This document shows positions 24,684 through 30,709 of a stretch of 30,935 nt of DNA, piece by piece. The stretch is from a virus (taxonomy: Duplodnaviria > Heunggongvirae > Uroviricota > Caudoviricetes). Both the position numbers and the translations under genes were made by a program. The stretch is from positions 1 through 30,935 of the IMG/VR virus record IMGVR_UViG_2690316316_000011, one strand, 5' to 3'. How positions within the stretch are numbered: position 1 is the stretch's first letter; each line of letters begins with the position of its first letter. Below the pieces are notes generated by a model. The model did not search any database. It was not told where the DNA came from and worked only from the letters and a program-made list of their open reading frames with translations.

Positions 24684-24974
24684 TTAACTTTGATGATTTT
24701 TATTATCTATATTATTATATTTTTGAATTCTTTCCTCGCGTATTAGACATGTAGTACTGCCATCGTCCATCTGGTAGATTGGATTGTAGATGCGACCGCA
24801 ATCACTCTGGAATTGAGGCCGATAGTACTTCACCCCGTTACGTGTACCTGCGTCAAACAGTACTACAACAGCCTTGTTATCAACATTGCCGACAAAAGCG
24901 TTATCCATGAATGAGTGATGTACGTTACTACAGCCTGTTAGCAGTACTACCAACATGACGATGAGTATTTTCAT
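24684..24974 (-). CDS. small lipoprotein (candidate superinfection-exclusion protein)
   Basis: 96-aa ORF; signal peptide MKILIVMLVVLLTG followed by lipobox Cys (LTGC-SN); two further Cys in the mature part. Confidence 0.6.
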   Translation of the reverse strand: MKILIVMLVVLLTGCSNVHHSFMDNAFVGNVDNKAVVVLFDAGTRNGVKYYRPQFQSDCGRIYNPIYQMDDGSTTCLIREERIQKYNNIDNKNHQS

Positions 24975-24984
24975 TTCTATTTCC

Positions 24985-25515
24985 TTATAGTAATTTTTCG
25001 CAGTGCTCGAAGCGGATCGGCTTGTACATGCCCTGTACTGCCCAAACTCCGCATCCCTTAAGCAACTGGTGATGGTTGGTGTCCTGTACCTGTACGATCA
25101 CCTTGTCACAGCATCTATGGATGTTCTGTAGCAGTACGGGGAACATGACGCTCCCGATCAACTCATCACTGAACCTTCTATTTAGCCGTACTACCTCATA
25201 ATCGCCGTGCAGCAATTCGACCGCCGAAGTACCACGCCTCCCAACGTCATCGAGCCAGTGCAAGCCAAAGTACTTTATGTAGTCTGCCGACTCAGTGGGA
25301 AGTATTGGAGTGCTGACAGCACAGAACAGACCATTTGACCTGAACCACTCTTCTTTCCTACGTATGACGCTCATCTGTTCATGGTGTAGCTGCCGCTTCA
25401 GTACATCCCCAGCAATAACCCGGCAGCCATGTATTTCTATCTGTGGCTGGATTTCCACTCCGAGCAGTTGCCCATTGAGAGAAGTGGTCGGCACAGACCA
25501 GTACTGGATGTTCAT
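24985..25515 (-). CDS. hypothetical Cys/His-rich protein
   Basis: 176-aa ORF co-oriented with the lipoprotein gene; visibly GC-richer than surrounding DNA; no motif recognised. Confidence 0.35.
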   Translation of the reverse strand: MNIQYWSVPTTSLNGQLLGVEIQPQIEIHGCRVIAGDVLKRQLHHEQMSVIRRKEEWFRSNGLFCAVSTPILPTESADYIKYFGLHWLDDVGRRGTSAVELLHGDYEVVRLNRRFSDELIGSVMFPVLLQNIHRCCDKVIVQVQDTNHHQLLKGCGVWAVQGMYKPIRFEHCEKLL

Positions 25516-25568
25516 TTAATGACCTCATTTGACCGTAAGTCATTAATATTGATCATTTTTATAGATCA

Positions 25569-25585
25569 TTCAATGCATCATTGAA
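25569..25585. promoter_or_regulatory. palindromic operator-like site
   Basis: TTCAATG-cat-CATTGAA inverted repeat in the divergent intergenic region between 24985-25515 (-) and 25677-25985 (+). Confidence 0.3.
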
Positions 25586-25639
25586 CAGTTTTATCGATAG
25601 GTTGTGATTTACTGGATTTTTAAAGCCACATACCCAACA

Positions 25640-25655
25640 CTGTATATACATACAG
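25640..25655. promoter_or_regulatory. candidate LexA (SOS) box
   Basis: CTGTATATACATACAG fits the enterobacterial LexA consensus CTGT-N8-ACAG with AT-rich spacer; overlaps a TATATA -10-like hexamer, 22 nt upstream of the 25677 start codon. Confidence 0.5.
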
Positions 25656-25676
25656 CACAACTATGGAGAACATCAA

Positions 25677-25985
25677 ATGAGTAAGAATGGCTACGATCCA
25701 GCAATCATTCGAGGGGTTCAGACCTTCACACATTGCGAGCGTGAATTCAGGGTTTGCTACTACGGTTCAGTACTGGATAAGTTTGCATGGGGTGATCGTG
25801 TGTTCTTCCAGAATGGACAAGGGAAGTACTGGTTCGGTACAGTTCAACGTGATTGCTTCGACCTGATCATTGAGTACCCCATCGCTTCAGTACTGGAAGG
25901 GTTAACTTATCTGGTGAGGGAAGATGAAATTGCCAGGCTTCATGAAGATGGTTGGTTTTGTGGACAAGAAGAACTACCGTTTTGA
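25677..25985 (+). CDS. hypothetical protein, possibly SOS-regulated
   Basis: 102-aa ORF with GGAG Shine-Dalgarno 8 nt upstream; preceded by the LexA-box candidate; followed by an AGTACT-flanked inverted repeat. Confidence 0.4.
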   Translation: MSKNGYDPAIIRGVQTFTHCEREFRVCYYGSVLDKFAWGDRVFFQNGQGKYWFGTVQRDCFDLIIEYPIASVLEGLTYLVREDEIARLHEDGWFCGQEELPF

Positions 25986-26096
25986 GTACTACCCCCTCAC
26001 ACCAAACAAACCTACCCATTAGCAAGGGGGAGTACTTTCTCGTAGTATACAGAACGAATAAATTCTTTGTATACTGCCGTTTTATCCTAAAGCGAT

Positions 26097-26783
26097 TTGA
26101 TTATGGACGAGAATAAAAAAGAAGTTATTGAAATAAGATCAGAAGATAAGGACTTTTTTGCAGAATTTATTGATTGTGAAGGTCCAATTATCCAAGATTC
26201 AATTGATCATAAAAAAATCACCCTTGCACTTGATAAAGCCCATGACATAAGAAAGTTTGAAATAGATCTCTATTGGAAGCGTGCTACTTATTTCTTTGCT
26301 TTTTTTACGGTTGTTACTGCTGCATTCGGTTTTACATTCTCAAATTACCGCTATACCTCTCTATCCCCCGCAATTGCTATTATCGGGATGACTTTTTCAC
26401 AGTGTTTTTATCATGTTAATATTGGCAGTAAGTACTGGCAGGAAAACTGGGAGTTCATTATTGATAAAATTGAATATTATGTGACTGGCAATCTTTACAA
26501 AGTTAGTTTCTTTGAAGATCATAATACATTAAGACCATCAGTGTCTAAAATTAACATTTATCTTAGCTGCTTTATCAAATGGGTTTGGATTTGTTCTCTA
26601 TTCCTATCTATTTTTAGCATACTCTTTCCGCATCCTATTTACTCATTGGTCTATTCATTAGTTGCATTCAAGCTGTATAAGCATACAGAACAGCACTGCA
26701 AAAAAACATTCAGTGATGAGTTAACTAATGATAAAAAAATCATTAGACGATTCCATTTCCGAAATCCAACATACAAAAAATAG
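26097..26783 (+). CDS. polytopic membrane protein, unknown function
   Basis: 228-aa ORF; soluble N-terminal ~60 aa then two pairs of hydrophobic helices (YFFAFFTVVTAAFGFTF / AIAIIGMTFSQCFY; IYLSCFIKWVWICSLFLSIFSILF / IYSLVYSLVAF) and a basic C-terminus; AT-rich, one AGTACT copy. Confidence 0.4.
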   Translation: MIMDENKKEVIEIRSEDKDFFAEFIDCEGPIIQDSIDHKKITLALDKAHDIRKFEIDLYWKRATYFFAFFTVVTAAFGFTFSNYRYTSLSPAIAIIGMTFSQCFYHVNIGSKYWQENWEFIIDKIEYYVTGNLYKVSFFEDHNTLRPSVSKINIYLSCFIKWVWICSLFLSIFSILFPHPIYSLVYSLVAFKLYKHTEQHCKKTFSDELTNDKKIIRRFHFRNPTYKK

Positions 26784-26811: not shown

Positions 26812-27297
26812 CTATGCTGTAGCTCGTTCATTCCACGCATCTGTATACTGGATATTACCGTCACAGTACTTCCATGTAATTCTTTCGTAGCGTAATTCTA
26901 CACGCTCCATATGATTACATTTTTCAACGGTCTTTGTATTGTACATTATCGGGGTTACGGCAACGACTTTGACGCCTTCAAGAAGCATATTGAAGTACTC
27001 TACTTCCTGGCCTGCATCATTAATCTTGTACCATTTAATTTCGACACTTTTAAGCGACTGGCCTGTAGCAACTGCTTTATAGAGATATGGCGTAGAGCTA
27101 TCAAATTCCTTTTCTAATACCATCGGTGCATGGATTCGAGTTCCAGTAATTTTACCAGTATTATTATCGGTAGGAATATGTAGACCATGACCGAAACCAA
27201 TAATTTCTACACTTCCCTCGCGATCCATTACATCGCATGACCCCTTAATTAATGCTCCACCATCATCTTTAAGCCATAAGTGTGCGGGGATTGCCAT
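26812..27297 (-). CDS. hcp: Hcp (type VI secretion system tube protein) homolog
   Basis: 161-aa ORF; MAIPAHLWLKDDGG N-terminus, IPTDNNTGKITGTRIHAP, PYLYKAVATGQSLKSVEIKWYKINDAGQEVEYF and RVELRYERITWKY blocks parallel enterobacterial and Vibrio Hcp sequences recalled from memory; AAGGAG Shine-Dalgarno 7 nt upstream. Confidence 0.8.
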   Translation of the reverse strand: MAIPAHLWLKDDGGALIKGSCDVMDREGSVEIIGFGHGLHIPTDNNTGKITGTRIHAPMVLEKEFDSSTPYLYKAVATGQSLKSVEIKWYKINDAGQEVEYFNMLLEGVKVVAVTPIMYNTKTVEKCNHMERVELRYERITWKYCDGNIQYTDAWNERATA

Positions 27298-27309
27298 TGA
27301 AAACTCCTT

Positions 27310-27666
27310 TTAATCGTAAAGCCAGCGACCAGCCTTAGCTGATTCGACAAGCATTTTGAGTGTTAATGGTTGTGGTTCAATCCATTCCCATTTATTATCT
27401 TTTGATCGTAAAAAATTCAATGGAAGTATTACTTCTTCATTGGGCCAGTACTTTCCAAATGTGAAGTTTTTCCGATCAACATTGAACTTCGTAAAGTAAT
27501 CATCAAGTATCTCTATCGCATCTTCATCTGCCCAAGGATACTTTCCTGTTGATAGGCTTGTTTCCAGCGTCAATGATGGCTTCCTGAAAAATGGAAAAAC
27601 ACGCCCATTCCAATTGTCGTTATACCAATTCATGACCTGCTGCTCTATGCTATCTGAATCGTTCAT
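27310..27666 (-). CDS. small soluble Trp-rich protein, unknown (operon partner of hcp)
   Basis: 118-aa ORF 12 nt upstream of hcp and 7 nt downstream of the 148-aa ORF. Confidence 0.4.
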   Translation of the reverse strand: MNDSDSIEQQVMNWYNDNWNGRVFPFFRKPSLTLETSLSTGKYPWADEDAIEILDDYFTKFNVDRKNFTFGKYWPNEEVILPLNFLRSKDNKWEWIEPQPLTLKMLVESAKAGRWLYD

Positions 27667-27673
27667 TCAGTAC

Positions 27674-28120
27674 CTACCATAGACGATCTGAAGGATGGGC
27701 GATTGTATTGTACTTATTGACAGCTTTGAAACTGATTATAGAAACGTCTGCTGCGAGTATAACCCAACCAACAAGAGGAATAGTCCTGCCAACGAATGTA
27801 CCTAATCGCTGTGTCATAACTCGTTTGGCATTAGGTGGAAATCCAATCCAAGTGGGCATTCGTACTGGCATCATTCGCCCTCTGAATAATTTTCTGGAAT
27901 AGATTGATGCCACGGATGTTCCGGGGGTTGCCCCTGCGAGTTTACCTGCTACTGTGACACTATTCGAACCAAGATAGATCCCTGCTACTGCGGCTATGTC
28001 TGAGATACCAAAGTGATCTAATGTTTCATCAACCATGATCCAGAAGAATAGCTCCCCTGCACTCAGATTGGACGAACCGTCATAGAAGTATGTTCCGTTA
28101 AGTTCTTCTACTGTATCCAT
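27674..28120 (-). CDS. hydrophobic glycine-zipper-like protein, unknown (first gene of hcp operon)
   Basis: 148-aa ORF with Gly/Ala-rich hydrophobic stretches (ISDIAAVAGIYLGSNSVTVAGKLAGATPG; GRTIPLVGWVILAADVSIISF). Confidence 0.4.
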   Translation of the reverse strand: MDTVEELNGTYFYDGSSNLSAGELFFWIMVDETLDHFGISDIAAVAGIYLGSNSVTVAGKLAGATPGTSVASIYSRKLFRGRMMPVRMPTWIGFPPNAKRVMTQRLGTFVGRTIPLVGWVILAADVSIISFKAVNKYNTIAHPSDRLW

Positions 28121-30208: not shown

Positions 30209-30709
30209 TTATTGTGATTTGTGTAATAGTACCGCACTAAGTTTCGGATAAGATTTATACTTCTGCGATAGCTTATAGATGTATGACTTACGTCCAGCAA
30301 CATAAGCTGCATGAGCTTCTTCTACCGTTTGGTATGTTCCAAATTTATGTACTTTCTTATCAAATGTAGCTTGTGCTTGATAGCCCTTATGATTAACGAC
30401 TACACCAGTTGATAAAGATGTTGGTACTTCCCGAAATAATTGATTGATTTCTCTCGGTACAAAGATACAGTTACTTGGGCTGTACTCACTCCCTCCTAAT
30501 ATGTCTTTATCCAAGTGCCAATCATCAACGACATTATCAATATACCAGTAATAAAAGTTACTAAAGAGATACCAATCATCGCAGATAGTAACAGTACTGT
30601 AATTGATGTTATTACGTACTCTTGAGTGAAAATTATTCCATACTAGTTGTGCTTCTTTTATACGTGGTAGTGCCTGACCTTTTAGGTCATTTCTTTTTTC
30701 CTTTTCCAT
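30209..30709 (-). CDS. HNH homing endonuclease with C-terminal AP2-like DNA-binding domain
   Basis: 166-aa ORF; HNH-like H..D......N....N segment (WHLDKDILGGSEYSPSNCIFVPREINQ) and AP2-like C-terminus (GVVVNHKGYQAQATFDKKVHKFGTYQTVEEAHAAYVAGRK). Confidence 0.55.
   Translation of the reverse strand: MEKEKRNDLKGQALPRIKEAQLVWNNFHSRVRNNINYSTVTICDDWYLFSNFYYWYIDNVVDDWHLDKDILGGSEYSPSNCIFVPREINQLFREVPTSLSTGVVVNHKGYQAQATFDKKVHKFGTYQTVEEAHAAYVAGRKSYIYKLSQKYKSYPKLSAVLLHKSQ

Follow-up and report, generated by a model that had tools for sequence, protein, structure and literature searches.

Many temperate phages and plasmids sense the distress of their host through LexA-controlled genes of the kind known from prophages. 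The proteins DinI and PsiB act on RecA, and SocB is a toxin which binds the clamp and blocks replication. Among the SOS-dependent loci, the p95-tum-orf97 operon of phage 186 and its P2-like relatives, and the dinI-antirepressor loci of the phages Gifsy-1 to Gifsy-3, are the closest described systems to the locus presented here. For the Gifsy loci the antirepressor activity of GfoA and GftA was demonstrated, and LexA-controlled antirepressors encoded far from the immunity region are established (PMC3121763). For tightly LexA-controlled genes of Salmonella a distance between box and ATG of 21.6 +/- 5.8 bp was reported (PMC8072944).

With these systems we compared a locus on a stretch of phage DNA of 30,935 nucleotides, called the window in the following, where a LexA box precedes a gene for a protein of 102 amino acids. 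The regulatory logic is familiar and can be regarded as a textbook device; the interest lies in an uncharacterised family of mobile proteins that keeps a LexA box of its own. New in this study are the membership of the protein in phrog_2100, the spread of this family over three types of elements and a conserved tail on a fold that found no match.

The gene for the 102-aa acidic protein, a long-form member of phrog_2100, is located on the plus strand (25677..25985); the assignment is based on the phrog_2100 match, 86 homologues from a profile search and an AlphaFold2 model. An intergenic region (25516-25676) separates it from a divergent ORF of 176 aa on the minus strand (24985-25515, from the ORF call). 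The arrangement of box, divergent region and downstream 102-aa ORF, described in an earlier note on this DNA, was thereby confirmed. The core of the box, CTGTATATACATACAG, has the form CTGT-N8-ACAG (25640-25655), and 21 nt lie between its end and the ATG.

The bare pattern CTGT-N8-ACAG was found twice in the window (0.39 expected), and at least two copies were also present in 7 of 100 shuffles. Such weak enrichment would be compatible with a palindrome in which LexA plays no role, bound by a repressor of the element itself or formed by chance or at the RNA level. As the count alone is weak, the window was scored with a LexA weight matrix, a scan which the earlier note had proposed. The matrix comprises 20 columns and is based on 20 published LexA sites of E. 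coli (training range 12-27 bits), which reportedly go back to Lewis 1994 and Fernandez de Henestrosa 2000. The 20-mer CACTGTATATACATACAGCA (25638..25657, no strand assigned) reached 24.5 bits, a value in the upper part of this training range. This score was attained by none of 5000 shuffles of the window, the shuffle maximum being 23.0 bits. The annotated LexA site of the p95 promoter of phage 186 served as positive control and scored 28.0 bits with the same matrix. With its CTGT-N8-ACAG core, its AT-rich spacer and its closeness to the consensus TACTGTATATATATACAGTA, the 20-mer has the features of a gammaproteobacterial LexA box. The LexA-consensus palindrome claimed for 25640-25655 is thus present.

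The second CTGT-N8-ACAG (26673-26688) lies within the 8xMP gene and scored 18.4 bits, a value found in 2.6% of the shuffles. It was not found in other 8xMP homologues and is probably fortuitous. Besides this one intragenic match, 25638-25657 is the sole strong LexA site in the 30.9-kb window.

The conservation of the box was investigated at homologous loci. An initial word-indexed search with a single protein query returned just four proteins. To obtain the locus set, cluster representatives were searched in full with HMMER, contigs of viruses and genomes were scanned and exact sequences were looked up; for each locus the best match to the LexA matrix within 120 nt upstream of the start was taken as the box. 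All 38 homologous loci, which represent 31 distinct sequences, carry a LexA box of 17.4-28.8 bits, and between its end and the ATG lie 12-21 nt. This spacing agrees with the 21.6 +/- 5.8 bp of the Salmonella genes (PMC8072944). In most of the loci of 12-20 kb, the box is the sole site of at least 17 bits.

In the box-anchored alignment, the 20-mer carries 1.51 bits of information per column versus 0.46-0.49 in the 40-nt flanks. The box is kept in the orthologous promoters while the flanks drift: the 31 distinct sequences agree throughout in the CTG and CAG columns, whereas their spacer is variable and their flanks have diverged. The conserved columns are exactly the contact bases of LexA, CTG(T)/(A)CAG, accompanied by flanking TA and a spacer rich in AT. 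In several relatives the right half-site reads CCAG and not ACAG. This exchange is a common variant of LexA sites which breaks the palindrome and is tolerated by LexA; the pattern is therefore that of a protein-binding site and not of an RNA hairpin.

These observations bear on the supposition of a palindrome without a role for LexA. Apart from the weak enrichment of the bare pattern, the evidence argues against it: the conserved columns coincide with the LexA contacts, the matrix score exceeds that of every shuffle, the exchange to CCAG disrupts hairpin pairing, and the consensus is kept on three unrelated types of elements that have no common regulator. A search of Rfam over 25400-26200 gave no match. 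We regard this explanation as highly improbable. LexA very probably controls the 102-aa gene, as judged from matrix score and conservation, and the box, found at 38 of 38 loci, is very probably the working operator that the earlier note had postulated when it placed the gene under LexA and SOS control.

The elements of the promoter were derived from the alignment. In the window and in four other loci (L003, L010, L013, L027), a motif TGGA(C/A/T)N precedes AA(T/C)ACT at a distance of 17 nt. For the window this gives a putative -35 hexamer TGGATT (25613..25618, plus strand) and a putative -10 hexamer AACACT (25636..25641, plus strand), the spacing of which is kept in the alignment; the LexA box begins within the -10 hexamer. 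In most relatives the -10 hexamer is AATACT versus AACACT in the window. As a separate observation, the box of the window has C instead of T at its first position. Based on the 31 aligned sequences, TGGAnn-17-AAtACT is a plausible sigma-70 promoter. A simple scan for the sigma-70 consensus called no promoter at the box, and the hexamers of the window itself are weak. A TATATA within the box had been proposed earlier as -10 element; these letters are present, but the alignment favours AACACT at 25636-25641 instead. With this geometry, transcription would start inside the LexA box, near 25648. A ribosome-binding site GGAGA (25665..25669, plus strand) was read from the sequence 7 nt before the ATG, and motifs of the GGAG type occur at the same place in the relatives.

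A stem-loop with a stem of 13 bp and a loop of 27 nt, followed by UUUCU, was found directly after the stop codon (25984..26037, plus strand; RNA fold -19.1 kcal/mol, z = -2.5). It is the probable 3' boundary of the transcription unit; a scan with the terminator consensus did not recognise a canonical terminator in it. Read-through from the LexA-controlled promoter as a means of controlling the downstream 8xMP gene was considered as well. It is unlikely because of this stem-loop and because the 8xMP gene carries its own upstream region of 210 bp in 30 other E. coli genomes.

The intergenic region contains a further palindrome, TTCAATG-cat-CATTGAA (25569..25585, no strand assigned), to which the earlier note had drawn attention. 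Its presence was confirmed, but its role as a functional site found neither statistical nor comparative support. Perfect inverted repeats of this size occur at 1.16 per kb in the window, 11% of the shuffles of the intergenic region hold an equal or better one, and the palindrome was not found in the orthologous region of two relatives (L002/L004). We rejected it as a feature because of this shuffle frequency and the missing conservation.

The window carries genes for lysis, tail, head, portal and terminase on the minus strand of its left 23 kb. Contigs with an identical 102-aa protein run beyond the window into a gene for a large serine recombinase of 646 aa and then into host DNA. At one locus that has this gene and box (L032), the host flank shows 100% identity to yeaG of E. 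coli. E. coli G3/10 has a decayed copy within ybhA, with a recombinase fragment at its end. By its gene content and flanks, the element (G+C 39.7%) is therefore a temperate siphovirus prophage of E. coli and relatives, bounded by a large serine recombinase. The description as a lytic-type genome has to be abandoned for this reason, and likewise the remark that LexA control would be unusual here: in a temperate element it is of a familiar kind, known from tum of phage 186 and from the dinI-antirepressor operons of Gifsy (PMC3121763). The homing endonucleases mentioned along with the lytic type are real, their genes being of the HNH type (30209-30709) and of the GIY-YIG type, SegE-like (2515-2967), but they are uninformative on lifestyle. 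The yeaG flank and the copy in G3/10 point to E. coli, and thus to a host that has the cognate LexA with specificity for CTGT-N8-ACAG.

Between the small terminase gene and the integrase, the element holds the LexA-boxed gene, variable cargo and a few small uncharacterised ORFs. The cargo genes encode a DUF3800 protein, a lipoprotein, a degenerate EAL-like protein, an 8xMP/RipA membrane protein and an Hcp-DUF1493-DUF8209 module. With Pfam and PHROGs, no repressor, regulator or replication gene was recognised among the ORFs of the element; neither a CI-like repressor nor an S24 repressor nor an HTH regulator was among them. When the prophage was compared by megablast with 50,697 phage records, no match was obtained. 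The best relative of the capsid has less than 30% identity, so no characterised phage serves as a guide; among cultured phages the element has no close relative. The 102-aa gene thus marks a little-known prophage lineage of E. coli and other enterobacteria, one without a recognisable repressor or replication module.

This gene content leads to the main alternative to an SOS accessory factor. The 102-aa protein could be the trigger of prophage induction, either as antirepressor or as direct activator of the divergent late operon, and would then replace RecA-mediated cleavage of a repressor in the manner of Tum in phage 186 and of GfoA and GftA in Gifsy. The lack of a CI-like or S24 repressor or an HTH regulator among the recognised ORFs would fit, and so would the fact that the box of the gene is, besides one intragenic match, the only strong LexA site of the window. 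Antirepressors are often small acidic proteins like this one, and there is the precedent of antirepressors under LexA control at a distance from the immunity region (PMC3121763). Furthermore, in the serine-integrase siphovirus prophages the long form of the gene is always located upstream of the small terminase gene and divergent from it. Cargo genes intervene in many loci; in loci free of cargo, L027 for example, the two genes are adjacent and share a control region of 250 bp.

The distribution of the family is less favourable to such a trigger. The 102-aa protein matched phrog_2100, a family of unknown function, with E = 9.3e-11 over residues 21-87. The profile search gave 86 homologues in two size classes, a long form of about 100-104 aa, to which the protein of the window belongs, and a short form of about 85 aa. 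Compared with the short form, the window protein has about 17 additional N-terminal residues and the ELPF tail. The long form was also found on plasmids of Enterobacter, Serratia, Salmonella and E. coli with genes for conjugative transfer. There the gene lies beside topB and hha, and each copy is preceded at 12-13 nt by a LexA box of its own (25.8 and 17.4 bits). The short form occurs in P2/186-like prophages, as third gene of an operon in Cartapus and Enterobacter with LexA boxes of 23.6-26.1 bits. The first gene of this operon matches the PHROG families of the Tum N-terminus (698, 1993, 8554) and the second one is DinI. The unit of box and gene occurs on three unrelated types of mobile elements: siphovirus prophages, P2/186-like prophages and conjugative plasmids.

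Cartapus gp46, which matched phrog_2100 with E = 4.8e-40, shares 36% identity with the window protein in a pairwise comparison (E = 7e-12). In a tblastn search against the 50,697 phage records Cartapus gp46 alone was found, and no antirepressor of Gifsy or 186. The window protein and Tum of 186 gave no alignment. No homology was detected for 186 Orf97 and Cartapus gp47 with the 237-aa protein of the window. Similarity to the antirepressors of 186 and Gifsy was thus not found, and the Tum N-terminal PHROGs match a different gene of the Cartapus operon. The P2/186-like phages accordingly have a homologue of the Tum N-terminus already, alongside their phrog_2100 gene. The presence on conjugative plasmids, which have no phage repressor, argues against an antirepressor specific for a repressor. 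In addition, the C-terminal peptide is common to carriers whose repressors would be unrelated. In view of both sides we consider an induction trigger unlikely, and an SOS accessory factor is preferred.

The protein itself is acidic (pI 4.8) and soluble, without a membrane segment. Pfam gave no family with E <= 0.01 for the 102-aa protein, the DinI family (PF06183) included, and no meaningful family at E <= 1 for 81 members of phrog_2100. AlphaFold2 predicted, with good confidence (mean pLDDT 87.9), five strands and one helix. This predicted fold had no structural match in PDB or BFVD, and the search of PDB by sequence profile gave only spurious matches to designed repeats. Since the fold has no known relative, the globular domain offers no hint on function.

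More information can be drawn from the C-terminus, HEDGWFCGQEELPF. In residues 91-102 the pLDDT drops to 61 and then to 48. The codons for the final Q-E-E-L-P-F (25965..25982, plus strand) are assigned to a docking motif, predicted to be disordered, because of its conservation, its pLDDT and its likeness to peptides of the clamp and SSB type. Of the 25 members with 95 aa or more in alignment A3, 19 have [QR]-x-[ED]-L-P-F as their extreme C-terminus, behind an acidic/aromatic stretch; in the long form Q-x-E-L-P-F hardly varies. Members of the short form have N-Y-S-L-F(D) or F-D-D-D-F-x-L at this end.

Two kinds of peptide resemble this tail. The motif for the beta clamp lies in a disordered segment and has Gln at position 1, followed by an aliphatic residue, with Leu or Met at position 4 and Phe or Leu at position 5 or 6; QVELEF (C-terminus of Pol III alpha), QLSLPL (Hda) and QLELDF (the phage display winner) are known clamp-binding peptides (PMC11139829). 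Among the members of at least 95 aa, 17 of 25 have Q1, L4 and F6, and two more have R1 or L6; position 2 is variable (E, G, W, R, H) and not aliphatic. The SSB tip of T. thermophilus ends in EEELPF, and its last five residues are identical to EELPF-COOH of the window protein (PMC13489159). The window protein ends in [DE][DE][IL]PF as SSB tips do, which is a likeness of sequence alone. The ending [ED]LPF-COOH was found in 19 of 25 members of at least 95 aa, and the short subfamily lacks an SSB-type tip. E-L-P-F fits the reading as SSB tip whereas the invariant Gln does not. As the motifs stand, the clamp and the SSB tip cannot both be the main reading.

With a tail for the clamp, the protein would also suit a replication blocker similar to SocB. 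The gene might accordingly encode an SOS-induced toxin or growth-arrest factor comparable to SulA, TisB, SymE or SocB, with an abortive or addiction function. A small, tightly LexA-boxed gene on mobile elements is consistent with this, and the position at the edge of a cargo and defence hotspot (8xMP, GTPase, AIPR and Hcp modules) as well. Nonsense mutations were detected in 3 of 31 distinct loci (L002/L004, L013) and in the copy of E. coli G3/10. Occasional alleles of this kind would fit a toxin. They show that the gene can be lost while the element stays; some lysogens therefore do without it or even select against it, which counts against the accessory factor. For a toxin, neither an antitoxin partner nor an antisense RNA was detected (no match in Rfam), and the product is soluble and acidic without membrane segment. 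A toxin is in our opinion quite improbable; it overlaps in part with the accessory factor and does not exclude it.

For the accessory factor, we infer the promoter hexamers, the occupancy by LexA and the whole mechanism of the protein as follows. In undamaged E. coli, LexA on 25638-25657 would cover the -10 hexamer together with the transcription start and so keep the gene silent. After DNA damage, the self-cleavage of LexA stimulated by RecA would leave the promoter free, and the 102-aa protein would be made. Composed of a small acidic globular domain and a flexible tail with the end Q-x-E-L-P-F-COOH, it would act as an SOS accessory factor of mobile elements. The tail may dock in the peptide pocket of a hub of host replication and repair, either the beta sliding clamp or a protein binding the SSB tip. 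Docking would redirect or block DNA transactions of the host to the advantage of the element during SOS, comparable to the action of DinI and PsiB on RecA.

Taken together, a LexA-controlled gene whose product is an SOS accessory factor docking on a host hub is the reading that we consider reasonably probable. The docking mechanism of the C-terminal tail, viewed by itself, is put forward tentatively, on the basis of motif likeness. If it is true, mobile elements would have a new way to manipulate replication and repair in the SOS response. Still more speculative, and rather doubtful at present, is the generalisation that phrog_2100 is an unrecognised class of SOS effectors spread by phages and plasmids. 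Its members would be LexA-gated decoys or adaptors with the tail in the pocket for the beta clamp or the SSB tip, and in the lineage of serine-integrase siphoviruses they would form the sole link from host damage to the lytic programme.

In comparison with the known systems, the tail resembles the SSB tip (DDDIPF in E. coli, EEELPF in T. thermophilus) in its EELPF-COOH at the extreme C-terminus, predicted to be disordered and preceded by an acidic/aromatic stretch. In contrast to SSB, no OB fold and no Pfam match to SSB was detected for the window protein. Where the window family has its invariant Gln at -5, SSB tips have Asp or Glu, and a terminal PF is lacking in the short subfamily. With the proteins carrying a clamp motif (Pol II, Pol IV, the C-terminus of Pol III alpha, Hda, SocB), it shares the disordered C-terminal Q-x-E-L-P-F with Gln 1, Leu 4 and Phe 6, and NYSLF of the short subfamily is close to the clamp-type motif QLSLF. 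It differs from them in position 2, which is not aliphatic, and in a globular domain unrelated to known clamp partners.

At the level of the locus, the Gifsy-1/-2/-3 dinI-antirepressor loci are similar in that a LexA box precedes the first ATG by about 19 bp and in small proteins encoded far from the immunity region (PMC3121763). No sequence relationship to them was found by tblastn. Antirepressor activity was demonstrated for GfoA and GftA (PMC3121763) and would be conjecture for the window family, which also occurs on plasmids. Unlike the 186-type operons, the window gene is alone behind its box, in a siphovirus with serine integrase, and its product has no similarity to Tum or DinI. In phage 186, no phrog_2100 gene was present in the stretch examined. 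Common to the window locus and to the p95-tum-orf97 operon with its P2-like relatives is a single strong LexA box over the -10 element of a dedicated promoter, a putative one in the window, that drives small genes at the genome edge, beside the packaging genes and a cargo hotspot. Furthermore, a short-form homologue is an operon member in the Cartapus and Enterobacter prophages. In P2-like phages this homologue shares its operon with DinI. The modulators DinI and PsiB are, like the protein described here, small acidic proteins on phages and plasmids, and the window protein would be expected, as they are, to act on the DNA-damage machinery of the host and not on the DNA of the element.

The gene for the RipA-family octameric membrane protein (8xMP) and 210 bp of upstream DNA move together as a cassette, located at 25887-26783 of the window and at 5001-5898 of L043, a locus of E. 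coli NCTC86. The upstream part of this cassette contains the 3'-terminal ~100 nt of the 102-aa gene. Thirty other complete E. coli genomes have the same stretch at 96% identity. In NCTC86 the cassette lies in a different island, which also encodes a recombinase and a nucleoid-associated protein. At 26044-26075 of the window, promoter-like hexamers accompany an inverted repeat (GTATACAGAA...TTTGTATAC).

Further LexA-like sites were identified with the weight matrix for this repressor. The second site of the window, AGCTGTATAAGCATACAGAA (26671-26690; 18.4 bits), is placed within the 3'-terminal part of the 8xMP/RipA coding sequence and specifies LYKHTE of the protein. An equally high score was obtained with 2.6% of the window shuffles. 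The site has the same sequence in four comparison loci (L032-L035) and is not present in other 8xMP homologues (L001, from E. coli G3/10; L028; L043). The E. coli variant loci L036-L039 carry a different LexA-like site, TACTGGATCATATTCCAGTA (17.2 bits), between a GTPase gene and an HNH gene that converge. The NCTC86 island has a strong LexA box at L043:697-716, TACTGTATGAATAACCAGTG (22.5 bits), 35 nt upstream of the 'nucleoid-associated protein' gene, which is followed by a gene for a 572-aa hypothetical protein. The island genes behind this box may represent another SOS-controlled mobile-element module.

Nonsense mutations in the 102-aa gene were found in the Buttiauxella copy, present in a genome MAG and in an identical IMG/VR contig (L002/L004:6001-6309), in one further IMG/VR contig (L013:5995-6306) and in E. 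coli G3/10 (L001:6290-6600). In G3/10 the LexA box of the gene copy is also decayed (14.8 bits), and no gene is given at this place by the PGAP annotation.

Within the intergenic region upstream of the 102-aa gene, two GATC (Dam) sites stand in inverted arrangement, TGATCATTTTTATAGATCA (25529-25567). This pair overlaps TTGACC-16-GATCAT on the + strand, the only consensus-type promoter call of the region. A GATC-containing sequence is again found at this place in the relatives L003-L008.

On the other side of this region, the divergent 176-aa ORF (24985-25515, - strand) is related to, and shorter than, an EAL-domain protein that a Rahnella prophage encodes at this position; the two share 25% identity, the ORF has an internal deletion, and the Pfam EAL match is no longer found. 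The next gene (24684-24974, - strand) codes for a lipoprotein that weakly matches Cor superinfection exclusion. These two genes are cargo, missing in many relatives. An orphan Hcp gene (type VI secretion tube/effector), followed by a DUF1493 gene and an STM2901/DUF8209-family gene (26812-28120), is likewise prophage cargo, lying between the terminase and integrase regions; the window contains no other T6SS genes.

Genes for a GIY-YIG SegE-like endonuclease (2515-2967, - strand) and an HNH endonuclease (30209-30709, - strand) are situated amid the lysis genes and upstream of the packaging region, respectively. The 3-TM holin (1337-1633) matches the Pfam 'GTA holin' below threshold (23.2 bits, cut-off 24.8).

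In general, the prophage lineage, represented by the whole window, L032:14533-18333 and L031, comprises about 33 kb with a large serine recombinase. Many IMG/VR contigs of 31-33 kb share their ends with the window. E. coli G3/10 carries the insertion in ybhA; in other E. coli it adjoins yeaG. No repressor, antiterminator or replication gene is recognisable in the lineage, and its capsid shows <30% identity to that of the nearest cultured phage.
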